From NCBI GenBank assembly GCA_964492715.1, contig CAZBLK010000004.1, positions 16,286 to 80,285 on the forward strand: a stretch of DNA of 64,000 nucleotides, read 5' to 3'. The DNA is from an uncultured Defluviitaleaceae bacterium. GTDB lineage: Bacteria > Bacillota > Clostridia > Lachnospirales > WRBF01. The translations under genes were made by a program, and so were the position numbers. Below are positions 8,097 to 20,807 of this stretch, piece after piece. The notes below the pieces were generated by a model that saw only the letters and a list, made by a program, of their open reading frames with translations, was not told the origin of the DNA and searched no databases. Position 1 is the first letter of the stretch. Each line of letters begins with the position of its first letter.

Positions 8097-9443
8097 ATGC
8101 AAGACGATTTGTTTAACGAAAGTGAATTAGATGAGCAGTACATTCTTTCTGAAAAAGAGCGCAAACCTTCGTTTTTAAGCCGCATTGTAGGTTTTTTTAC
8201 CAAGCTTTTTGTTAAAAAGAAAGAGGAAACCGAACAAGTTGACTTTTCTCGTTTCAGCAGCTTTTTATATGGTTTAACCGAAGGAACGGACGTTTATGCC
8301 CAAATTGAAGAAACCGTAATTCTTTGTGACAACGCCCTTAGAACAGCACGCCAACGTGTTACGCTTGCAAAAAAAATTAAAGTAATTGACGACACACTTG
8401 CAGAGCTTGAATGTTTTAACCGTTTGACCGAAGACGAAACGAAAAAGCTTAAAAACATGCTTGAAAGTTTTGTCGCTTTAACGAAGGAAAGAAACGTGCT
8501 TTTGTACCAGCTTACAAGCTTCGACCGTGCGCTTGGCTACATGGTAGACCTTGTGGACGATGCTGAAAACGCCATGCCACAAATTTTGAATGCCGAGAAA
8601 AACCAGCGCATTTTCCGCCAAGACATAGGCCAGCTTGAAGGCGAAAAGACCGACCTTGAATACGAAAGGGAAGCACTCGAAAAAGGCATTTCGTTTTTGA
8701 GCAAGTTTTCTTTGGGGTGCATTGCAGCTTTTGGGCTGTCAGCAGTTTACCTTGGTTATACATTCATTTTGGACAAAGGAAGCATTTTCATTCCAACGAC
8801 TGTTATTGTGCTTTTAACTATAGCTGTTGCTACGTTGATTTACGTTTTTAGAAAGAGAATGGTTTTTGAGCTTACAATGAACATTAGAAAACAGCGGCGG
8901 TTGGTTGAAATGCTTAACAAAAAGTCGGTAGTTTATGCTTACTACACAAACTACCTTCGCTTCGTTTACAAAAAATATAAGGTAACAAATTCGTCAATGC
9001 TTCGCACCACAATTAACGACTTCGAGCACTACAAGCACATTACTTCAAGGATTGACTCTATAAGAAGCATATTGTACGAAACAGAAGCACGAATTGAAGC
9101 TTTCCTCAAACAGAAGAAAATTGTAAACGTTAAAACTACGCTTGAGCAGTTTGCAAAAACTATAAACGTTGAAGATAAGCGTGAATATTATAATGAACTT
9201 ATAGAAAAAAAGGCGGCTTTTGAAGCCGAGCTTTTGGCACTTGACCAAACCAACGCAGAACTTTTTGAAAAAATTGAGGAAAACAACAAAAATGACATTT
9301 CCGAAGAAAAGCTTGTTAATACAATGATAAAAGTTTACTTTGACGAAGTTAGCAGGCTTATGCAAACTATAGATAGTAGTGATGAGCTTGAGTTTTTGGA
9401 GGAAGATGACGAGGTTCAAAACGGAAATTCTTCTATAGCTTAA
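8097..9443 (+). CDS. Coiled-coil membrane protein with two central TM helices (hypothetical)
   Basis: 448 aa. It has a long charged heptad-like N-terminal region and two hydrophobic helices (FSLGCIAAFGLSAVYLGYTFIL and IFIPTTVIVLLTIAVATLIYVF). A second coiled-coil region and an acidic tail follow. Confidence 0.6.
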   Translation: MQDDLFNESELDEQYILSEKERKPSFLSRIVGFFTKLFVKKKEETEQVDFSRFSSFLYGLTEGTDVYAQIEETVILCDNALRTARQRVTLAKKIKVIDDTLAELECFNRLTEDETKKLKNMLESFVALTKERNVLLYQLTSFDRALGYMVDLVDDAENAMPQILNAEKNQRIFRQDIGQLEGEKTDLEYEREALEKGISFLSKFSLGCIAAFGLSAVYLGYTFILDKGSIFIPTTVIVLLTIAVATLIYVFRKRMVFELTMNIRKQRRLVEMLNKKSVVYAYYTNYLRFVYKKYKVTNSSMLRTTINDFEHYKHITSRIDSIRSILYETEARIEAFLKQKKIVNVKTTLEQFAKTINVEDKREYYNELIEKKAAFEAELLALDQTNAELFEKIEENNKNDISEEKLVNTMIKVYFDEVSRLMQTIDSSDELEFLEEDDEVQNGNSSIA

Positions 9444-9614: not shown

Positions 9615-11522
9615 ATGTCAATGCTGCCAGATGTTTTTAAAATGAAAAAGGTTTTAAAATTCTTTACTATTTTTGCAATTGTTACATTTGCACTTAGTTT
9701 ACCTGTGGGTATATTTGCTCAAAATTTGCAAACTATTGCAGAAGTTAATGGTATTGATGTAATTCTGCTAATTGACACAAGCGGTTCTATGCGTGCATCG
9801 GATAAAGGGCGAAATGCAATTGAAGCGGCAAACCTCTTTATCGACATGATGGAAACAAAAAATTCTCGTGTAGGAATTATTGCGTTTAACGACAACGCAA
9901 GAGCTGTCATTGATATGACTGTTTTGAACAGCCAAGAAGACAAAGAGCTTTTGAAACAAAAAATTTCAAGCTTTGAATACGAAGGATACACAGACATTGG
10001 AATGTGGCTTAAAGAAGCTGTAGCTTCAATTCTTGGAAACGTCCGTGACAAAAACAGCCCAATGGTTTTGCTGCTTACAGACGGAAACATTGAAATTGAC
10101 CCTGAAAGTAATGCAAGAACTGCTGAAGCTTCCTACAACGACATAGTCGAAGTTTTGGCAACTGTTGGGAAAAAGCTTCCTATATACACAATTGGCTTAA
10201 ACTATAATGGAAATGTTGACACAGAGCTTTTAAAAACTGTTTCCGAGTCAACAGATGCAAGAAACTACATAGTAAAAGAAGCAAACAACCTTCCACAAAT
10301 TTTTAACGAAATTTTTGCAGACCACATTCAATCTTCGCTTTTGGAGCTTGCTTCTTTTGTTGCAGACGGCGAAAACTACAACGAGGTGAAAATTGACATT
10401 CAAAGCGACTTTGTTGCAGAGGCAAACATAATTATGCTTTCGGAAAAAGAAGTTGCTGACGTTTTGCTTTTTAACCCTCAAGGTGTGCAAACAGAGTTTA
10501 ACCATGATAAAATAAATTTTTCAAAATCTAATAAATATTCTATTATAAAAGTTATTTCACCTGAAAAAGGTGTATGGACACTTAAAGCAAAAGGTGTGAA
10601 GGGCGACAACATTCGTGTTAACCTTATTTATCAGTTTGACTTTGATGTGGAGCTTTCGGCTCAGCCGTCCAAAGACGGTTCGCCTTACGTTTTTACTGGT
10701 AGCCTTATAGTTAATGGTAAAAAAGTTTCTGATGAAACTATTTATAAAGCAACTGCCTCTACTTTGGTTGTAACAGATTCTATGGGCAACGTTTTGGAAG
10801 AGTTTCCCATGAAAGCAACAAAAGATGGGCTTGTTTGTGAGTATACGCCAACTGCTGCTTCAAACATTGAGCTTTTTATACAAACTACTGGTAAAGATTT
10901 CACCAAAAAAAGCAATATATATAAAATTGAATACGTACCAGCAGAAACGCAACAGCCTGTTCCTGTGGAAACTAAAGCACCAGAACAACCACCTTCTGCT
11001 ACCCCTACCCCACCAATGCCCGAACAGGCCGCAAAACCTCTTTTTTCAACTTCGACTATTTTGCTTTTAGCCGTTACTGTTGTAATTGTCGTTTTGCTAA
11101 TTGTGTTTGTAGCGTTCTACCTTAAATCAAACAAAGCAAAGGTATTTACTGGGTATATTGAAGTTAGGGCTATGGATATAAACGAAAAATATACTTCGCT
11201 TGAAACACCTAGCCTTGCTACTTATGTAAACAAAACTTCGCTTTCCGACTTTCTTTCGACAAGCCTAAAGCCAAAAACTGAGCAGGCTGTTAGAGAACTT
11301 CCTTTTAAGGTTGACAACATTTGGCTTTCGCCTGGAAATGCAGGAAATGAGTTTGTAATTAACTTGGAAAACAAGTCGGACTGCATAGTTTCTGACATCT
11401 TTGGTTTTGTAATGGAGCAAAATAAAATTATTTGGCACAAAGACCAGTCTATTGTAATTAAAGGGCGTGGTGATACAACAGGTGCTAAACTTGAAATGAC
11501 TTATAGAACTGACGAAGTTTAA
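9615..11522 (+). CDS. Exported, single-pass membrane-anchored von Willebrand factor A (VWA) domain protein
   Basis: Signal-like N-terminus (KKVLKFFTIFAIVTFALSLPVGIFAQ). MIDAS motif DTSGS at 9774-9788 plus a downstream LLLTDGN. A beta-rich middle region is followed by a Pro-rich linker, a TM helix (ILLLAVTVVIVVLLIVFVAFYL) and a cytoplasmic tail of about 130 aa. The start may be ATG 9621, which has better spacing from GAGGGA. Confidence 0.85.
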   Translation: MSMLPDVFKMKKVLKFFTIFAIVTFALSLPVGIFAQNLQTIAEVNGIDVILLIDTSGSMRASDKGRNAIEAANLFIDMMETKNSRVGIIAFNDNARAVIDMTVLNSQEDKELLKQKISSFEYEGYTDIGMWLKEAVASILGNVRDKNSPMVLLLTDGNIEIDPESNARTAEASYNDIVEVLATVGKKLPIYTIGLNYNGNVDTELLKTVSESTDARNYIVKEANNLPQIFNEIFADHIQSSLLELASFVADGENYNEVKIDIQSDFVAEANIIMLSEKEVADVLLFNPQGVQTEFNHDKINFSKSNKYSIIKVISPEKGVWTLKAKGVKGDNIRVNLIYQFDFDVELSAQPSKDGSPYVFTGSLIVNGKKVSDETIYKATASTLVVTDSMGNVLEEFPMKATKDGLVCEYTPTAASNIELFIQTTGKDFTKKSNIYKIEYVPAETQQPVPVETKAPEQPPSATPTPPMPEQAAKPLFSTSTILLLAVTVVIVVLLIVFVAFYLKSNKAKVFTGYIEVRAMDINEKYTSLETPSLATYVNKTSLSDFLSTSLKPKTEQAVRELPFKVDNIWLSPGNAGNEFVINLENKSDCIVSDIFGFVMEQNKIIWHKDQSIVIKGRGDTTGAKLEMTYRTDEV

Positions 11523-11613: not shown

Positions 11614-14600
11614 ATGAAGTTAGGTGCTGATATAATAAACAACCTCAAGCTTTTAGACTATGAATACGGCGGAGGTATAACTGTTGACGACGCTAGGGTT
11701 GACACTATATCAAAGCCCATACTTATAGTAGGCCTTGGCGGAACAGGCGCAGAAGCGCTTATCCGTGTGAAAAAGTCAATAAACAAGCACTTTAAGCTTC
11801 ACACAGCATCAGATGGGCGCAGGCTTGACCGCCCACTTAACATTGAATATTTAGCAATAGACTCTGATGACAATACAGAAAACTTAAAGTACGACGGCAT
11901 TAGCTTTTCAAGAGAAAGCAAGGAGTTTGTGCTTTTAAACAGCTCAAACCTTACTTCAATTTACAAAAACAAAGACGCCGTTTTTAAAGCGTTCACAAGA
12001 GACTGGATTTCGGACAACTTGCGGCTTCAACAGGTGAAGCACGGCGCAGGCGGCATTAGGCAAGCTGGGCGTTTTCTTTTCTTTATAAACATGAATAATG
12101 TGCTTAGCGTTATTACCGAAAAAATAAACAGGCTTGTTACAAACAGAGAGTCTAAAGACTTGCTGTACGTTTTTATAATTGCTGGCGTTTCTGGAGGTAC
12201 AGGAAGCGGAACTTTTATAGATATTCCTTACATAATTCGTAAAGTAGCAGAAGCAAAGGGCTTTGGCACAGAAAACATTGGTATGCTTTTTTTGCCCGAC
12301 GTTACACTTTCTGACAACACAATAGATGGTGCTGCTGCACTAAACATAAAGGCAAACGGCTTTGCTGGGCTTAAAGAGCTTGACTATTTAATGAACATAG
12401 AGCGAAACGGTGAAGTTTTCAAGCAAAAATATTCTGATATTGAAGTGGAGACAAACCTTCCGCCCTATGACCTTTGCCATTTGATAAGCTCTAAAGACGA
12501 AAGCGGAAAGCTTATTAAAAACGCCAAAAACTACTGCATGAACGTAGCCGCAGAAACTATTATAAACTTTATTGCAAGCGAGGAAATTACAGACGGGCAA
12601 AATTACACAATTAATTCTTACCTGTCTAACATAGAAAACACAAAAACTACTTTTTTAATGACACACAGCCAAAAACAGCCTACAAACTACATTTATAACA
12701 TTGTAGGTACGTCAAGCGCAGTTTTGCCTATTGACTATTTAATTAACCATTTAACATACAAAGTTTTCAACGAGCTTTCACCGCTTTACGAAAACAGCCC
12801 CACACAAGACGAGCTTGTTCAAACTTTGCAAGCTTTAAAAATTGACCTCATTTCAATTGAGCGTGAAATTGAAATGGACAAACCAAAACCAAAAGATTTA
12901 AGCAGGTACGACTACAACGTTTTAAAGCTTCACCCGGAAATTGTTGAAGATGCAATTAATTCTGAAATTTTAAGGAACAAGGAATACATTGATCAAAAGG
13001 CAATGCAAATTATTTTTCGGCTAAAGGAGCAGCTAGAGGGCAATCAAAACATAATTGCCAGCCACTTTACCGACTTGGAGCTTGGCCCTTTTTACGCAAG
13101 AAAAGAGCTTTCTGCTGTTTACGACAACTCGCTTTTAAAGCTAATTGACGGAATTAGAAAGCGTGATTTAGTTCAAAAAAAGGAATCGCCCGAAGCTATA
13201 AAGGCGCTTGAAGCAAAAAAGCAAGCTGCCATGAGCAAGCTTTTGGGCAAATTTGCCATTATGAAAGGTGCAATTGCTGACAATGTAATTGACGCACACG
13301 AACAATATTGCAAGGCGATTATCCGAAACGAAATGTATTCGGCTATTGACAAAATTTACGAAGAAGCGTACAGAATGCTTGAAGAGTTGGGCTACAAAAT
13401 TGTTGACACATATTGCGAGCTTCTTCTTTCGCTTAAAGAACTTTTTGACAAGTTTAAAAACCCCGAAGCAAAAGCAGCAAATGAAACACTCGGCGAAAGC
13501 TTTACATGGGACATTGTGGACGCAAAAGAATTTTGTGAAAGCGTAACGTCGGACCGTGATTTAATGCAGGACATTAACAACAAGGCAATTTTGCAACAAC
13601 TTTTAAAGGACATTATTTCTTCACCCGAAAAATGGATTTTGGGTAAAGGCGCAAACGTTGCCGACAGCATTAACCACTTTATTACAAGAGAGCTTCACGC
13701 AGCAACAACAAAGTCTATGGACTATTACCTTGCGCTAATTGCAAAAGAAAAAAACATGACCGCCCTACAATACATTGAACATAAAGTGGAAGAACTTAAA
13801 ACAAACGCAAAAGTTATGTTCCCAATGAACCACATTCCAACAGGGCTTTACATTGAGTTTCCGCCATACTCGTACCTTTCAATTCCGCACAATGCGCCAA
13901 GCATTCGGAACAAGGTGCGCTCGCTTGCTGGAACAGGCAACAATTACAACTTAAAATTTAGCAAAATGTTAAACCGCATTTATATGTTAAACCTAAAAAT
14001 TGCCGTGCCTTTATACTGCTACAAAGAACTTAACGACTATGAAGCCGTTTATGAAGCTTCGGCCGGCAAGCTTTCTGGGTTGCATTTATATGAGGGCGAA
14101 AGCCCAAACATGAATTGGCGCAACCTCCCCTCCCCCAACTATGACAAGTTGTGGGTTGCTGGCTATGAAAACCGCAATGAGCTTGAAAGAAACGAGCATA
14201 TACGCCAGGTTTTCGACAAAGGCTTGGATTATTCGTTAATTCAGTTTGACGAAAGAAACCGCCGTTACGTTTGCCGTTTCGGCGAGCCAGTAAACATTTT
14301 TGAAGCGTATAACATTAAAAAAGCTGATATTATGGGCAATGCAATTTCAATTACAGATGCAGTTAAGCTTGCTTCCAAGTTGCGCAGTTTTTTGGCGGAC
14401 AAGTCACGGCTTATCCATGAAAAAAGCATTTTTGACGTTGAGTTTCTTGCAGACAAAAAAACTCCAGACAATGAGTATGTAAAAGGTGTTTTCATTTATA
14501 TGCCAGAACTAAACACAAAAATTGCTGAGGAAGTAAAAACTTACGAAGAAGCAACTGAAATTTTAAAGGCTCTTTCCAAAATTGAAGAAACCGAAGTTAA

Positions 14601-15008: not shown

Positions 15009-16952
15009 ATGCCAAAAAAGATACATTGTAACGAAATTAAACAGCGTAGCCCAATTGTTTACATCTTTGTTGGTGAAATTGATGAAGGCATAAAAGACGG
15101 CATAAAACATATACATAAAAAGCGTGTTGGTGCAGGCGGCATAGGCTACATTACGGCTTACCCCCAGAACACACGTGAAGAAATTGTTTCCGAAGTTAAT
15201 TTGCTTAGACGTGAGTTTATCAAAAATACTTACTCTGCCGCTGGAGAAATTAAGTTAAACTATGTCGTTTCGGCAGACAATGCTGACGGGCTTTTTTTAG
15301 CAACAGTTAAATCTTGGCTTAACGAACATTTTAAGCTTTTGTACCCAGCGGCCATTGCGACAGATGTTTTTTTGCTTTTAGATGATGTAAATGTGTCACC
15401 AAACGAACACCGAAACGCTGTTTTAAAAATTGCTGACGAAATGGGCATGCAAGACTCGGCAATGGTTTACATTTTGTCCAACCTTAATAACAGTGGCATA
15501 TATAATGAGGAAAGTAAGCTAAATATTATAAATTCAATTGCACTAATTGCACTTTTTAAGGAATATGCTTCACCGCAACCTGATGGTACAACTAGATACA
15601 TTTATAACGAACACTTTTTTAAAGAAGATTGCTTTCGCCAAGGAAATGGCGGAAAGTTTGCAACGCTTGGGCACTATAAACTTAAAAAGCCTATGGGCTT
15701 AATAAAAAAAATTGTGCTGACTAAGCTTCTTTTGCTAATGCAAAATGGAAAAGGCTTTGACGGCGGCTTCGACCCAACGATAAACACAACAAGCAATCAG
15801 TTGAACTTAACTTTAGATGACTTGCTTGCACTACCTTTAAACCGCACAATTTCTGCTGGCGAAAAAACAAGCATGTCAAACATGGGTGCATTGCAAGCTT
15901 TATTCGGCAAACGGCTTGATTTATTTTACAAAGTGAATGAGCAGTCACAAGCAGATAATGTTTTAGTTGAGCTTAAAAAATATTTTGAGGAAGCTGTTTG
16001 CAGCGTAAACGTAGGTTTTTTTAAAACGTTTGACGAAACATCGCCAGACGGTGCACTGACAAAGAGGCTTTTGCAAATGCTTGATGAATTAAAATACGCT
16101 GCAAAAATCGCCGAAGCCCAATTTGAAAGCTGGAAAGGGCAACCAATTTCCGACAACGGCAAGATTTCTCTTTCGGTTTTAACTTCAATTCAGGCATTCC
16201 CTTACAAGCTTGCCGAAAAATATTTGAAATTTAAGCACACTTTGTCAAGCTATAAACACCAAATAAACCAGCTTGAAAAAGCAATTGAAGAAGTAAAACA
16301 GTTTCATTTTAAGCTTGCTTTAACCAAACAAAAAATAGACGAAATTGTGTCACGCTATAACAAAGAAATTGACGAAACAGAAGAAAAGCTTATGCCTATG
16401 CAAAGCTCTGTTCGCAAGTTTTACGAAGCAGCACTCATTGACTGCATCGGTGAAAGCATGACAGAATTTTTAAACATATATTCAAGCCTTTTTAACCTTT
16501 CAGAGGAAGGAAAATTTTCTTTATTCATTGAAAAGCTAGAAACGTTTGTTGAAGAAAATGTTTTCAAAAAACACACGGCGTTCCAAAAGCCATTTGCCGA
16601 AAGTACGGCGCAAATTCTTTGCTTCAACAGCGAAGCCCAAACTGACGATGAAGCTTATCGGCTTATTTTTGACGAGATTGTAGCTGGCAAAACGTTTAAC
16701 GTGTTTTTAAAAACAGGCATGTCAAGGCTTCACTGTGAAATTAACGTTATGCTTGGCACAGAAAGCAAGCTTGCACACACAATTAGGTCGGGCGCTGCTT
16801 CTTGCGCAAACAAAGTAAATATTTTTTACGAAGCTGAAAAGGAAATCGGTGACGTCGACATAATTTACCACGCAGGTGGCTTTTCGCAGGAAGATTTATA
16901 TTACAACGAGCTTTTTCCAGAAAAACTTAACGGAGACAGGCATGGACGCTGA
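15009..16952 (+). CDS. Hypothetical 647-aa protein, possibly a degenerate (glycine-loop-less) paralog of the upstream tubulin-like protein
   Basis: Starts 14 nt after the upstream stop. The N-terminal SPIVYIFVGEIDEG sits where the neighbour has KPILIVGLGGTGAE. Alternating beta/alpha-like segments (LNYVVSADNADG, DVFLLLDDV, MVYILSNLNNSG) precede a helical C-terminal half. The similarity is weak. Confidence 0.55.
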   Translation: MPKKIHCNEIKQRSPIVYIFVGEIDEGIKDGIKHIHKKRVGAGGIGYITAYPQNTREEIVSEVNLLRREFIKNTYSAAGEIKLNYVVSADNADGLFLATVKSWLNEHFKLLYPAAIATDVFLLLDDVNVSPNEHRNAVLKIADEMGMQDSAMVYILSNLNNSGIYNEESKLNIINSIALIALFKEYASPQPDGTTRYIYNEHFFKEDCFRQGNGGKFATLGHYKLKKPMGLIKKIVLTKLLLLMQNGKGFDGGFDPTINTTSNQLNLTLDDLLALPLNRTISAGEKTSMSNMGALQALFGKRLDLFYKVNEQSQADNVLVELKKYFEEAVCSVNVGFFKTFDETSPDGALTKRLLQMLDELKYAAKIAEAQFESWKGQPISDNGKISLSVLTSIQAFPYKLAEKYLKFKHTLSSYKHQINQLEKAIEEVKQFHFKLALTKQKIDEIVSRYNKEIDETEEKLMPMQSSVRKFYEAALIDCIGESMTEFLNIYSSLFNLSEEGKFSLFIEKLETFVEENVFKKHTAFQKPFAESTAQILCFNSEAQTDDEAYRLIFDEIVAGKTFNVFLKTGMSRLHCEINVMLGTESKLAHTIRSGAASCANKVNIFYEAEKEIGDVDIIYHAGGFSQEDLYYNELFPEKLNGDRHGR

Positions 16953-17577
16953 AAGATTTATTATTCAAACCGAAGCACCGCTTAACGAGCAAATTGCACA
17001 GCTAGAACACTTTCTTGACAAAAAAAATAGTTTAGAACTTAAATGGAAGTGGCCAAAAAGTGCTGACATAAAGCTTGCAGCAGTTTTTTTTGTTGAAACC
17101 GGGGAAGAACAGCTTGAAACGCTTATTCGTGAAGGTTTTCCGTGTACCCTGGTAACAAAGTCAATTGACATGCACTACAAGGGTATGCTTGAAGTTCAAA
17201 AGCGAATGTACAAAGTTTACCCTGCAAAATTTGGGGCAGACAATAAAATTATTTTAGTTCCGCAAGAAGAAGGCAATGCTACACCGCTTGTTTTAAGGAA
17301 AATTCAGGTTTCATATACCGTTAAGTATAAGCCAATTTTAGGAAGCGAATACAAACAAGCGACAATAAAGCTTGCACCTTCCGAAAAGCTTGACATTTCG
17401 GAAAGCTTGGCCTACACAACAAGCCGAAGCAATCGTCTTTTTCCGCTTGAACAAGCTATGTGCACAGGTAATACTCCGTTTTACATAAAGAAATATGATA
17501 CAATTCAAATTCACGCTTTAGCGCAGTTTAAAGACGTAATACAGCTCCAAGAAGCAAAACTGCAAAAGGAGGATTGA
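16942..17577 (+). CDS. Hypothetical 211-aa protein, translationally coupled
   Basis: ATG at 16942 overlaps the upstream stop (16950-16952) by 11 nt. The longer track ORF from 16876 would overlap further. No recognisable motifs; appears beta-rich. Confidence 0.55.
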   Translation: MDAERFIIQTEAPLNEQIAQLEHFLDKKNSLELKWKWPKSADIKLAAVFFVETGEEQLETLIREGFPCTLVTKSIDMHYKGMLEVQKRMYKVYPAKFGADNKIILVPQEEGNATPLVLRKIQVSYTVKYKPILGSEYKQATIKLAPSEKLDISESLAYTTSRSNRLFPLEQAMCTGNTPFYIKKYDTIQIHALAQFKDVIQLQEAKLQKED

Positions 17578-19091
17578 CAGCCTTGCAAGAAAAAAAAGTT
17601 AAAGATATTCTTTGCCCCTACTGCTGCCACAGGTTTCACCCAAACGAAGCACACTTTCGGCTTAATGCGCCATGCACAGACGAGCCGCCCTCCCCTTCCG
17701 CTAAAAAAGGAAAGAAAAAGTCTGCAAAAGACGAGGGCTTAGGCAAAGTGCTTGACGAAAAGCTTTACCGCTACAACATGGACGTGCTGAAAAACGACAG
17801 CAGCGAAGCAGAAAAAAACTCAATGCAATTTTTGGCTGTCAGCCTTGAAACAGAAGGGGTTTCACCGTCTGAATTTGACATTGAAAAGTACGGCTTTACA
17901 CAAAAAGTTACATATACAATATATAACGAAAATTCGCAAAGCCACGAAAGCCCAAAAACTTTCACCACGCAAAAAAGGCTTTGCCCAAACTGCCACAACC
18001 AGCTTCCAATAGGCTACGGCTTGCGTGAAACTATTTTAATTTCGATAATCGGCGACGCAAGGGCAGGCAAGTCCATTTACTTGACAATGCTAATTAACGA
18101 GCTTGAAAGCAACCCCGACTTTGTTTCAAAGCTTAATTTTATAGGCGACCAGCACGCAAAGGACAGCATTTTTGAAAGCTACCAAAAGCCTCTTTTGCAC
18201 AATCACGTTTTGGTTGACTCTACAAAGCGCAAAAAAATTCCTCCTTTTTCTTACAACTTTTGGTACCAGTACCGTGGCGAGGACGGCATTTTAAAGGAAA
18301 ACACAATTGACATAATTTTTTACGACATTGCAGGCGAAGACCTTAGAGACGACCACGCCATGCGCCAAAACGGATTTAATATAAGGGATTCTTCTGGGCT
18401 TATTTTCCTTATAGACCCAACGAGCTTTAAAAAAATGGAAGACGTTTTCATGCTTGCCGACAGAAGCTTAATTGACAATAAACCAACGGACAACTCGACA
18501 TCAAGCATTTTTACTGCAATGTACAACTACTTCCTTGGGCTTGACACAGAAAAAAGCGACATACCCGTAGCAATGGCAATTTCAAAGGCGGACCTTTTTC
18601 GCTACGTAAACATGAGCTTTTTTGACGAAAAGCCAGAAAGCCGAATTAGAAAAGTTTTGGAAGGTGAAAGCTACAACGGCTACGTCCACATGAACAGCGC
18701 AAGGGGCATAAACACAGAGGTACGAGAGCTTTTGTCGTACCTTGGCGAGGAACAAGTTTTGAACAACGCTTTGGGCTGCTTTAAAAACGTGGGCTGCTTT
18801 GCTGTGTCGTCACTTGGAAAAAAGCCTGTTGTGGAAACTATAACCAACGAAAAAACAGGCGAAACTACCGAGAAAGGTTATGTTGACGGCGAGCTAGAAC
18901 CGTTTAGGGTGAAAGAGCCGTTTTACTGGCTACTTATGAAGAACAACTTGCTATACAGGTTTGACAACGGCGTTTACTATAAAAATGGCGAAACACCTGT
19001 TGTTGAAAAAGGAAAAGCAGGCTTTGTAGAAGTATTAAAAAAGATGTTTTCTTCCCTGTTTGCTTTTTCGTTTAATAAAAGAAAACGCTAA
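17574..19091 (+). CDS. Split zinc-ribbon + P-loop small-GTPase-fold protein
   Basis: The TTG start overlaps the upstream TGA (TTGA) and is preceded by AAAGGAGGA. CPYC (17613-17624) and CPNC (17982-17993) are separated by about 120 aa. G1 is GDARAGKS (18051-18074), G3 is DIAGED (18324-18341), G4 is SKAD (18582-18593) and G5-like is VSSLG. Confidence 0.75.
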   Translation: MTALQEKKVKDILCPYCCHRFHPNEAHFRLNAPCTDEPPSPSAKKGKKKSAKDEGLGKVLDEKLYRYNMDVLKNDSSEAEKNSMQFLAVSLETEGVSPSEFDIEKYGFTQKVTYTIYNENSQSHESPKTFTTQKRLCPNCHNQLPIGYGLRETILISIIGDARAGKSIYLTMLINELESNPDFVSKLNFIGDQHAKDSIFESYQKPLLHNHVLVDSTKRKKIPPFSYNFWYQYRGEDGILKENTIDIIFYDIAGEDLRDDHAMRQNGFNIRDSSGLIFLIDPTSFKKMEDVFMLADRSLIDNKPTDNSTSSIFTAMYNYFLGLDTEKSDIPVAMAISKADLFRYVNMSFFDEKPESRIRKVLEGESYNGYVHMNSARGINTEVRELLSYLGEEQVLNNALGCFKNVGCFAVSSLGKKPVVETITNEKTGETTEKGYVDGELEPFRVKEPFYWLLMKNNLLYRFDNGVYYKNGETPVVEKGKAGFVEVLKKMFSSLFAFSFNKRKR

Positions 19092-19179: not shown

Positions 19180-19255
19180 AACATGGGTTGGGCCCCCCAT
19201 GTTTTGCTAATAAATTTGGGGCAGGGCAAGGATGCCCGCCTAATCTCAAGGAGGA
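19180..19255 (+). promoter_or_regulatory. Flagellin 5' leader: 5'-proximal stem-loop plus two CsrA-type GGA sites
   Basis: Perfect hairpin aacatggg/cccatgtt at 19180-19203. Hairpin gggca-AGGA-tgccc presents GGA in its loop (19224-19237). A second AAGGAGGA overlaps the SD (19247-19255). Confidence 0.55.
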
Positions 19256-19262
19256 AAAACAC

Positions 19263-20807
19263 ATGAGTAATATGGTTATTAACACAAACGTTCTCGCTCT
19301 TAACAGCCACCGTGCATTAAAAGGCGTTGGCGGTACTCAAGCTAAGGCTTCTGAAAGACTTTCTAGCGGTCTTCGCATCAACCGTGCGGCTGACGACGCT
19401 GCTGGCTTGGCTATTTCTGAAAAAATGCGCAGCCAAATCCGTGGTCTTGACCAAGCTTCAAGAAACTCTCAAGACGGCATTAGCTTAATTCAAACTGCTG
19501 AAGGTGCTTTGCAAGAAACTGAAAACATGCTTCAACGTATGCGTGAGCTTACTGTTCAAGCTTCAAATGACACTCTTGAACCAGAAGATAGAGACAAAAT
19601 CGCTCTTGAGCTTAACCAGCTTTCAGACGAAATTGACAAGACTGCTGAAAAGACAGAGTTCAACAAGAAGAAGCTTATCGATGGTAGCTGGTCTTCTCAA
19701 TCACTTTACTTCCAAACTGGTGCTAACGCTGGCCAAGGCCTTACAATTAACATTGGTGCTATGGATGCTAAAACTCTTGGCGTTACAAAGGCTTCAATTG
19801 GCGGTGTTGTAGGCAATGCTGGTGCTGGTGCTGCTGCTGGCACTACAATTACTGCTGGTAATGCTATCTTTACTGCTGCTGGTGCTGCTGCTAGTACAAT
19901 TGACTTTGCTTTGTCTACAACTGCTTCTGTTAATGCTGGAAACTACATCATCAGCGACAAATCTAGGTTTGAAATCTCTGAAGATGGCAAAGTTACTCTT
20001 TTTGGTTTTGATGGTCATGAAAATGGTTCAGTTATCGACATGAAGACGTTAAAATCTGGCTTCACACTAGAAGCTGATAATGGTTCTACTCTTGCATTTG
20101 CCCCTTCTGCTTTAGGTAATGGGTCTCCAGGTGAATTAACATACACTGCTAGTGCTACTGCAGGTAATGCAATCACTGCTGACCCTGGTTCAGTAGGAGC
20201 AACACAAGTTTTATCAACTAGCGGTGATAATGTTCTTGTTATTACAGGCGGTAGCAAATCTGACGGTACTTATGATAAGGCAAATTCAACTTATAAATTT
20301 AGTGGTTCATCTACAGTTTATGCCTTAGATATAAGCGGAAAAGCAATTACTCTTCAAAAGGGTAAGGAATATACTACTGCTGAACTTAAAGATTTATATG
20401 GCGGAGCTGCTCCAACTACTATGCAATTTACTGTTGACGGCAAGCAATATGAAATTACTTTTGGCACTTCGCTTGTATCTGCTGGTGCATCCGCTGTTGT
20501 AAAAGGCTCTGCTTCAGGTTCTGGCGCATCAATTTCAAAGCTTACTGACACTATCGACGCAGCTATTGAAAAAGTTTCTGCACAACGTGCAAACCTTGGT
20601 GCATACCAAAACAGACTTGAGCACACAATTAAGAACCTTGACGTAGCATCAGAAAACTTGTCAGCTTCTGAGTCTCGTATCCGTGACACAGACATGGCTA
20701 AAGAAATGATGACTATGACAAAGAGCAGCGTTCTTTCACAAGCTGCTATGTCAATGCTTGCACAAGCAAACCAAGGACCACAAAACTTGTTGCAATTGTT
20801 GAGATAA
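19263..20807 (+). CDS. fliC: Flagellin
   Basis: Conserved N-terminus (MSNMVINTNVLALNSHRAL...RLSSGLRINRAADDAAGLAISEKM) and C-terminus (QRANLGAYQNRLEHTI...LSQA...LLQLLR), with an Ala/Gly/Thr-rich variable middle. ATG 19263 sits behind AAGGAGGA. The track start 19188 is an artefactual extension. Confidence 0.95.
   Translation: MSNMVINTNVLALNSHRALKGVGGTQAKASERLSSGLRINRAADDAAGLAISEKMRSQIRGLDQASRNSQDGISLIQTAEGALQETENMLQRMRELTVQASNDTLEPEDRDKIALELNQLSDEIDKTAEKTEFNKKKLIDGSWSSQSLYFQTGANAGQGLTINIGAMDAKTLGVTKASIGGVVGNAGAGAAAGTTITAGNAIFTAAGAAASTIDFALSTTASVNAGNYIISDKSRFEISEDGKVTLFGFDGHENGSVIDMKTLKSGFTLEADNGSTLAFAPSALGNGSPGELTYTASATAGNAITADPGSVGATQVLSTSGDNVLVITGGSKSDGTYDKANSTYKFSGSSTVYALDISGKAITLQKGKEYTTAELKDLYGGAAPTTMQFTVDGKQYEITFGTSLVSAGASAVVKGSASGSGASISKLTDTIDAAIEKVSAQRANLGAYQNRLEHTIKNLDVASENLSASESRIRDTDMAKEMMTMTKSSVLSQAAMSMLAQANQGPQNLLQLLR

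Follow-up and report, generated by a model that had tools for sequence, protein, structure and literature searches.

A diverged Tubulin_2 paralog without GTP-binding loops is encoded directly downstream of a Tubulin_2 gene in an uncultured Defluviitaleaceae bacterium

We analyzed a window of 64,000 nucleotides (nt), the whole stretch of DNA considered here, from an uncultured Defluviitaleaceae bacterium. The gene under study, referred to below as the target, lies in a packed operon that encodes, in this order, a vWA protein, a Tubulin_2 protein of 1126 amino acids, the target protein, a protein of about 210 amino acids and a DO-GTPase2 protein (Table 1). The target open reading frame (ORF) begins with an ATG codon that has GGAG 8 nt on its 5' side, and it starts 14 nt past the stop codon of the Tubulin_2 gene. 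An initial annotation, made by eye from the sequence, had proposed that the target is a catalytically dead paralog of the upstream tubulin-like protein. We found that the target belongs to a family of diverged Tubulin_2 paralogs in which the guanosine triphosphate (GTP)-binding loops are lost throughout. The ORF itself is real, and the four peptides quoted in that annotation were all found where it had placed them: SPIVYIFVGEIDEGIKDGIKHIHKK and LNYVVSADNADGLF represent residues 14-38 and 83-96 of the target, and KPILIVGLGGTGAEALIRVKKSI and LLYVFIIAGVSGGTGSGTF represent residues 34-56 and 183-201 of the upstream protein.

When the target was searched against family databases, no match was found in Pfam, even at E<=1, or in NCBIfam, and no meaningful match was found with PADLOC. 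The upstream protein matched Pfam PF13809 (Tubulin_2) with an E value of 2.9e-64 and PF00091 with an E value of 1.7e-4, and its invariant residues are G40, G42, G43, T44, G45, R149, Q150, G191 and G194-G199. PF13809 corresponds to the family called FtsZl1 by Makarova and Koonin 2010 (PMC2875224), who listed B8 (CKL_1665) and B9 (CKL_1664) of Clostridium kluyveri as uncharacterised neighbours of FtsZl1. Profile comparison of the target family with CKL_1665 using HHalign gave a probability of 99.1% and an E value of 9.1e-19 over 541 columns. Judged by this match, the target family is the "B8" of that study, and we use this name for it below.

Table 1. Positions of the operon genes and of the parts of the target gene in the window
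Feature	Position	Strand	Description
vWA protein with signal/transmembrane segments	9615..11522	+	Pfam VWA E 2.4e-18; conserved first operon gene
Upstream partner, Tubulin_2 (FtsZl1), 1126 aa	11614..14994	+	T1, T3 and T4 GTP-binding loops intact
Target gene, 647 aa	15009..16952	+	B8 family; diverged Tubulin_2 paralog without GTP-binding loops
N-domain, tubulin/FtsZ-like alternating beta/alpha	15009..15758	+	Residues 1-250; AlphaFold2, Foldseek, HHalign
Strand S1 and degenerate T1 loop	15048..15089	+	Residues 14-27, SPIVYIFVGEIDEG; column map
Strand S4 and lost T4 signature loop	15249..15290	+	Residues 81-94, IKLNYVVSADNADG; column map, motif census
S6-H7-(T7/H8)-S7-H8 core	15459..15794	+	Residues 151-262; strongest Tubulin_2 homology
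Helical region including a ~60-residue helix (397-458)	15795..16688	+	Residues 263-560; AlphaFold2 model
Small C-terminal beta/alpha domain	16689..16949	+	Residues 561-647; motif (D/V)(I/L)LYHAGxF
B9-type protein, 211 aa	16942..17577	+	Likely ATG start; overlaps the last target codons
DO-GTPase2 P-loop GTPase	17574..19091	+	PF19993 E 3.9e-7, 30.4 bits vs cut-off 27

Homologs of the target were collected in two ways. A word-indexed homolog search with the target returned the target alone, and a profile search from four close target sequences led to a single genome locus. The family is small and divergent: when 1.84 billion cluster representatives were scanned exhaustively with HMMER, 31 proteins were recovered. 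They are 116-774 amino acids long, with full-length members of about 580-775 amino acids, and the first family alignment (A1) of 28 sequences was made from them. Among these 28 members, the best Pfam Tubulin_2 score was that of one protein at an E value of 0.024. In the other approach, 80 metagenome loci were gathered with the Tubulin_2 profile, and the ORFs downstream of the Tubulin_2 genes were used to build an iterated hidden Markov model (HMM) from which tubulin matches were excluded. This yielded 73 members of the B8 family, and the Tubulin_2 comparison set comprised 105 full-length proteins.

A pairwise HHalign comparison, which had been suggested as a check of the paralog proposal, was then significant with these enlarged profiles. 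The alignment of the 73 B8 proteins with the 105 Tubulin_2 proteins had a probability of 96.1%, an E value of 3.1e-9 and a score of 91.2 over 671 collinear columns, extending from residue 8 to residue 641 of the target and from residue 1 to about residue 816 of Tubulin_2. The similarity became significant only after the genes downstream of Tubulin_2 had been harvested and the profile iterated. Reversed-profile controls scored 19 and 29 against the 91 observed, and 39 of the 40 block-shuffle controls scored between 24 and 49. Four unrelated ORFs of 694-1022 amino acids from the same loci had a probability of less than 1% against both profiles. The B8 HMM also reached an ORF of the Tubulin_2 family (L086:6544-9864) with an E value of 1.5e-4, in the helical region around its GPFYA motif.

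Comparison of sub-regions located the strongest signal in the core that runs from S6 to H8. Residues 151-262 of the target aligned with Tubulin_2 residues 286-419 with a probability of 95% and an E value of 4e-8, and the reversed control for this sub-region gave an E value of 0.38. Extending the comparison to residues 1-262 against Tubulin_2 1-419 gave a probability of 92% and an E value of 6.7e-7, and the helical residues 263-560 against Tubulin_2 420-730 gave a probability of 11% and an E value of 0.003, a weak similarity to the helices that come after the GTPase domain in Tubulin_2. The equivalence of the N-terminal 150 residues, among which are the two target segments quoted in the initial annotation, depends on the collinear extension of the S6-H8 core together with two intermediate sequences. 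In the full alignment the C-terminal beta domain is paired with Tubulin_2 residues 733-816; this pairing lacks independent support, and we do not claim it.

The two intermediate sequences are ORFs that lie directly downstream of Tubulin_2 genes (L076:13228-15540, 770 amino acids; L081:13228-15531, 767 amino acids). Both match the two profiles, with probabilities of 97% for B8 and 94-96% for Tubulin_2 (94-98% overall). They have kept a T1-like loop, GIGNQG or GIGNHG, and have lost T4. When the L076 ORF was aligned with the Tubulin_2 N-domain, the same register was obtained: LLVGIGNQGAKT lies opposite LIIGLGGTGxDA, and IKIYVVSDLSED opposite the T4 loop. By sequence, the two ORFs appear to be intermediate forms that link the active paralog with the decayed one in evolution. 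Membership of the target family in the tubulin/FtsZ superfamily is supported by this profile homology.

The family alignment also reproduced the register of the two pairings that had been made by eye, with PIVYIFVGEIDE opposite PILIVGLGGTGA at T1 and IKLNYVVSADNADG opposite LYVFIIAGVSGGTG at T4. Conservation at shared columns is given here as the percentage in the target family followed by the percentage in Tubulin_2, taken from column statistics of the enlarged alignments. Shared columns are found in S1 (P15/P35, 95% and 90%; G22/G42, 94% and 98%), in S6 (S157/S292, 89% and 98%; G163/G298, 53% and 96%) and in S7 (G221/G365, 73% and 100%; P228/P372, 86% and 100%). After H7, two positions are aromatic, Y or F, on both sides (Y199/Y331, Y in 83% and F in 69%; F204/Y336, F in 80% and Y in 71%) and are followed by N-D207/N339 (58% and 99%). 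This segment, conserved in both families, reads Y199-N200-E201..F204..N/D207 in B8, opposite Y331..Y336..S338-N339 in Tubulin_2.

The GTP-binding loops are changed in every part of this alignment where Tubulin_2 has them intact. At T1, the GLGGTG motif of Tubulin_2 faces FVGEID, and the sole glycine left in the target is G22, opposite G42; Tubulin_2 residues G40, G43, T44 and G45 (95-98%) face F, D/E and two variable positions in B8. The T3 segment GAGGxRQxGR (GAGGIRQAGR), 98% conserved in Tubulin_2, is deleted in the target family, as is the N248-G249 pair that is invariant after S5 in Tubulin_2. At T4, GGTGSG is replaced by acidic, D/E-rich residues with a deletion of 4 residues, the aligned segment being S-A-D-N-A-D-G. 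A census of the T4 motif [SAG]GG[TS]G[SAG]G found it in none of the 73 B8 proteins and in 101 of the 105 Tubulin_2 proteins. Since not a single B8 member has the motif, the glycine-loop loss noticed in the initial annotation is a trait of the whole family and not of this gene alone. Polar residues that the family has kept in the former pocket are D119, S157, N158 and K184, together with the acids at the T4 position (D90, 63%; D/E91).

One further difference was found at the end of H7, where K184 of the target (15558-15560; K in 80% of B8) stands opposite E323 of the upstream protein (12580-12582; E in 84% of Tubulin_2). From the alignment, this charge reversal could reflect a complementary contact or a catalytic difference, and we regard it as a lead and not as evidence. 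It presumably recalls, in a loose way, alpha-E254 versus beta-K254 of tubulin.

In the structural analysis, the AlphaFold2 model of the full-length target, built with the 28-sequence alignment, had a mean predicted local distance difference test score (pLDDT) of 85.5 and a predicted template modelling score (pTM) of 0.78. The model consists of a beta/alpha N-domain (residues 16-245), a helical region (about 270-560) and a C-terminal beta/alpha domain with strands at 575-583, 602-608 and 616-625, and helices account for more than half of its residues. G623 and F625 are invariant in the 28-sequence alignment, and the family motifs outside the core (W375, LFGxRL and LYHAGxF) are in the helical and C-terminal parts. 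The N-domain modelled alone had a pLDDT of 88.5 and a pTM of 0.85.

Foldseek searches of the Protein Data Bank (PDB) with the full model returned, after one dynamin-like match, nearly all tubulins, with probabilities of 0.97-0.99 over about 290 columns and E values of about 1e-2. With the N-domain, about 47 of the 50 best matches were tubulins (probability 0.9-1.0; E values of 8e-4 to 1e-2). The initial annotation would have given up its proposal if profile-profile similarity were not significant and the predicted fold unrelated; the similarity is significant, and the N-domain of the model appears tubulin-like. Tubulins are over-represented in the PDB, and the modelled likeness would support homology while being weak if taken alone. 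Against PDB sequences, the target-family profile produced coiled-coil noise alone, and the Tubulin_2 profile matched no tubulin, no FtsZ and no other PDB entry. No solved structure or experimental study of the B8 or Tubulin_2 family was found in the PDB and the literature searched.

We then considered how often the two genes occur together. Among the 80 loci fetched with the Tubulin_2 profile, 59 were informative in that the tubulin ORF was complete and was followed by 2 kb or more of sequence. A B8 homolog was found directly downstream of Tubulin_2 in 45 of these (76%); the median distance between the two genes is about 3 nt, and many pairs overlap by 4 nt. All loci of target relatives that had sufficient flanking sequence for inspection show the gene order (vWA), Tubulin_2 (1114-1164 amino acids), B8, a protein of 199-251 amino acids and DO-GTPase2, namely L001, L002, L003/L004, L006 and L007/L008. 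It persists down to about 20% identity; in one locus an additional gene separates B8 from the tubulin gene. Identity to the window protein was lower for B8 (31% in L001, 24% in L002, 21% in L007 and 19% in L003) than for Tubulin_2 (57%, 53%, 50% and 31%, respectively). Overall, identities of 20-31% between B8 pairs stand beside 26-57% for the adjacent Tubulin_2 pairs. By these values, B8 changes roughly twice as fast as Tubulin_2, in line with relaxed constraint.

Two other arrangements were seen among the loci. L086 has three ORFs of the Tubulin_2 family in a row (823, 1106 and 1128 amino acids; L086:4043-13354), followed by a B8 homolog of 642 amino acids. This tandem expansion was seen in none of the other loci, and its middle copy is the ORF matched by the B8 HMM. 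In L044-L054, L064, L067, L071 and L074, which are mostly contigs of termite-gut metagenomes, a subgroup of Tubulin_2 genes for proteins of about 1100 amino acids has no B8, B9 or DO-GTPase2 gene downstream, and their neighbours are unrelated ones. The active tubulin-like protein therefore appears, from these neighbourhoods, to occur also in another, uncharacterised gene context.

The other genes of the operon are likewise conserved. Homologs of the vWA gene were found in 66 related loci, and the gene has the same position in L001, L002 and L003. Counterparts of the B9-type protein, 199-251 amino acids in length, have the same position in L001-L009, with phmmer matches in 22 loci, and the position of the gene in the window matches that of CKL_1664 (family B9). 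The mechanical ORF list begins the B9-type gene at a GTG codon at 16876, with an overlap of 77 nt with the target. We prefer the ATG at 16942 because it has GGAGA in front of it and because the resulting 211 amino acids fit the 199-217 amino acids of the orthologs. DO-GTPase2 homologs were found in 45 related loci. The DO-GTPase2 gene begins with a TTG codon at 17574, overlapping the B9 stop codon by 4 nt, and the overlaps suggest that the target, B9-type and DO-GTPase2 genes are translationally coupled.

The window contains one vWA gene and one DO-GTPase gene, and no GAP1 Pfam domain was found among the operon proteins or the products of the other large window ORFs that were scanned. L002, L007 and the metagenome loci closest to the window (L010-L025) have the same reduced set of five genes without GAP1. 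A 448-amino-acid protein encoded just upstream of the vWA gene (8097-9443, + strand) has long coiled-coil segments, two predicted transmembrane helices and no Pfam match. We weighed its membership in the operon and decided against it, as none of 89 related loci has a homolog of it, and it appears to be specific to this genome. The operon is preceded by genes for UvrA and dCTP deaminase and followed by a flagellin gene; the other large ORFs scanned are housekeeping genes. With uvrA, dcd, flagellin and metK around it, the operon has no obvious mobile or defence island in its surroundings. The flagellin ORF (19188-20807, + strand) is listed from a TTG codon with about 25 extra N-terminal residues (MGPPCFANKF...), and its true start is probably a later ATG, at the conserved internal MSNMVINTN.

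Paralogy with Tubulin_2, loss of the nucleotide loops across the family, retention of the S6-H7-T7/H8-S7 core, faster evolution and tight adjacency of the two genes are established by these results. The target is probably a pseudo-GTPase of the tubulin/FtsZ superfamily, an ancient and fast-evolving duplicate of Tubulin_2 that would be made together with the active subunit and would bind it. Formation of a heterodimer with Tubulin_2 is a reasonable inference from adjacency and paralogy, and by motif analysis B8 appears to bind no GTP.

Several observations weigh against this interpretation. A BLASTP comparison of the target with the upstream protein is at chance level, its best E value of 0.18 being on unrelated segments. 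Shallow HHalign comparisons gave a probability of 26% and an E value of 7e-4 for A1 against a Tubulin_2 alignment (A2), 0.3% against a six-sequence Tubulin_2 alignment and 3.3% against a 37-sequence full-length one; all of the shallow runs pair YLLSNL with DLCHLIS and FLTAGS..L.vP with YxILGAS.A.LP. Taken separately, residues 1-150 aligned with Tubulin_2 1-285 in the same register with a probability of 4% and an E value of 0.01, and residues 561-647 gave no signal against Tubulin_2 731-830. One of 20 shuffles with 40-column blocks scored 145, above the real alignment. This is apparently an artefact of the N-terminal Met block having been moved to the interior of the alignment; in such controls the terminal block with the Met column should stay in place. 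The structural matches are modest as well, the N-domain matches to tubulins having query-normalised template modelling (TM) scores (TMq) of 0.37-0.48 and root mean square deviations of 5-6 A, with a TIR domain at rank 24 among the PDB matches. In BFVD, which holds viral models and few tubulins, generic alpha/beta hydrolases lead and FtsZ is at rank 12. Finally, the idea that the two genes always co-occur held in one direction. B8 was never seen without the upstream tubulin gene among the loci fetched, but the HMM criterion detected no B8 in 14 of the 59 Tubulin_2 loci. The distant B8-like ORFs come from two of them (L076 and L081), and the remaining negative loci are mostly termite-gut metagenomes with other neighbours. 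The loci without detectable B8 suggest that the active Tubulin_2 protein can work without it.

Part of this evidence could be read to mean that B8 has no homology to tubulin. The N-domain would then be a generic Rossmann- or flavodoxin-like domain, for example a TIR-like one, and the profile match an artefact caused by helical composition and by the way in which the alignments were built. The null results with BLASTP and Pfam, TM values below 0.5, the TIR domain and the hydrolases among the structural matches, the abundance of tubulins in the PDB and the one high shuffle control are all in line with such a view. We nevertheless consider it very improbable. The significant core (E 4e-8) is in the beta/alpha domain and not in a coiled coil, the reversed controls and unrelated ORFs remained at background, the L076 and L081 ORFs match both profiles, and the two families have their conserved P, G, S, G, G and P at the same columns. 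A further minor rival is that B8 binds a nucleotide or other small ligand in a non-canonical way, as a re-purposed sensor subunit. That D119, S157, N158, K184 and the acidic run at the T4 position are invariant or nearly so in the former pocket region, and that the two intermediate members keep a GxGxxG T1 loop, would fit this proposal. It is made improbable by the deletion of T3, the loss of T4 with its 4-residue deletion, the deletion of the invariant NG and the finding that 0 of 73 members have a glycine-rich phosphate-binding element; an acidic pocket would also be ill-suited to phosphates without metal ions.

The main rival accepts the tubulin ancestry and differs in what the protein would do. 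B8 would be a tubulin-derived adaptor or scaffold whose helices link the Tubulin_2 filament to B9, to DO-GTPase2 or to the membrane vWA protein, and the decayed N-domain would be a structural remnant without longitudinal contacts of the tubulin type. Helices make up over half of the protein, one of them about 60 residues long; its strongest motifs outside the core (W375, LFGxRL and LYHAGxF) are in the helical and C-terminal parts; B9 and then DO-GTPase2 always follow B8, with overlapping start and stop codons; and the top-face loops are wholly lost. The best shared columns, however, are in the S6-H7-T7/H8-S7 core, and a remnant lacks a reason to keep them. On this balance, we regard a purely scaffolding role as unlikely, though clearly less so than the two minor rivals, and prefer a non-hydrolysing partner that contacts the active subunit through the tubulin fold.

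In tubulin and FtsZ polymers, each subunit holds its nucleotide on the T1-T6 face, and the active site is completed by the neighbouring subunit through its T7/H8 face, where an acidic residue of the T7 loop activates GTP hydrolysis. In the mechanism that we propose, B8 would be produced together with the active Tubulin_2 GTPase and would bind it as a subunit that does not hydrolyse GTP and that regulates, caps or nucleates the GTP-dependent assembly of Tubulin_2. The columns that B8 has conserved are around S6, H7, T7/H8 and S7, which in tubulins is the side that contacts the nucleotide of the following subunit; the nucleotide-bearing face of B8 has decayed. With the docking face conserved and the nucleotide face lost, the simplest model is that B8 sits on Tubulin_2 and that GTP-dependent extension is then impossible. 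B8 might therefore be a cap, a nucleator or a polarity-setting partner. In its full form this model is a tentative possibility: a nucleotide-free pseudo-tubulin would dock its T7-side face on the GTP of FtsZl1 and cap, nucleate or polarise the filament, the active/inactive pair would have evolved in Firmicutes independently of alpha/beta-tubulin and BtubA/B, and the DO-GTPase as a switch and the membrane vWA protein as a sensor would exert control. Roles proposed for such operons are membrane remodelling (2010, PMC2875224) and a biological-conflict system (2020, PMC7159879).

FtsZl1/Tubulin_2 proteins are widespread in bacteria and archaea. The systematic pairing of an active GTPase with a decayed copy would provide a testable handle on assembly and its regulation, and would add a bacterial pseudoenzyme partner to the tubulin superfamily. 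For annotation, the "hypothetical protein" downstream of Tubulin_2 can be described as a tubulin-like paralog without GTP loops (B8 family). The view of the target as a dead paralog is supported and also largely known, as both the family (2010) and its tubulin-domain nature (2020) have been published. The present work adds an explicit alignment, a motif census across the family, the intermediate forms, the co-occurrence figures and a new, reduced-operon member.

The closest published relative of the target is the B8 of C. kluyveri, which is found in the same order of vWA, FtsZl1, B8 and B9 (about 215 amino acids). The Clostridium-type proteins have 775-860 amino acids, whereas the form in the window has 597-647 and is without the N-terminal extension and inserts; the shorter form is found mainly in Defluviitaleaceae-like genomes and metagenomes. 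With Tubulin_2 itself, B8 is collinear from S1 to about residue 815, and both have a helical region after the GTPase domain. The motifs in common are P..G in S1, S....G in S6, Y....F..N in the T7/H8 region and G......P in S7. B8 differs in being about 480 residues shorter, with the C-terminal third missing.

Kaur, Burroughs, Iyer and Aravind 2020 (PMC7159879) described such neighbourhoods as GAP1-N2-type DO-GTPase conflict systems, in which the DO-GTPase-GAP1 pair is the constant core and the Firmicutes version has two vWA and two tubulin-domain genes; the paper is silent on loss of the GTP loops in the second tubulin. Since a typical locus has just one PF13809 gene, the second tubulin gene is almost certainly B8, judging from gene order. 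The B8 locus of C. kluyveri has GAP1-N2/GAP1-M and two DO-GTPases. The operon in the window shares with these systems a DO-GTPase gene. It has two tubulin-derived genes and differs in having one vWA gene, one DO-GTPase and no GAP1, so that the published DO-GTPase/tubulin systems are represented here in a reduced form.

The comparison with alpha/beta-tubulin and BtubA/BtubB, which the initial annotation had offered as models of an active/inactive pair, holds in part. As in those systems, two tubulin-fold paralogs with unequal catalytic roles are encoded next to each other or expressed together, and the catalytically dead paralog is supported. The analogy is imperfect: in alpha/beta-tubulin and in BtubA/BtubB each of the two subunits binds GTP and has its T1-T6 loops preserved, and B8 possesses none of these loops. 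Tubulins are also without the long helical extensions that both B8 and Tubulin_2 carry.

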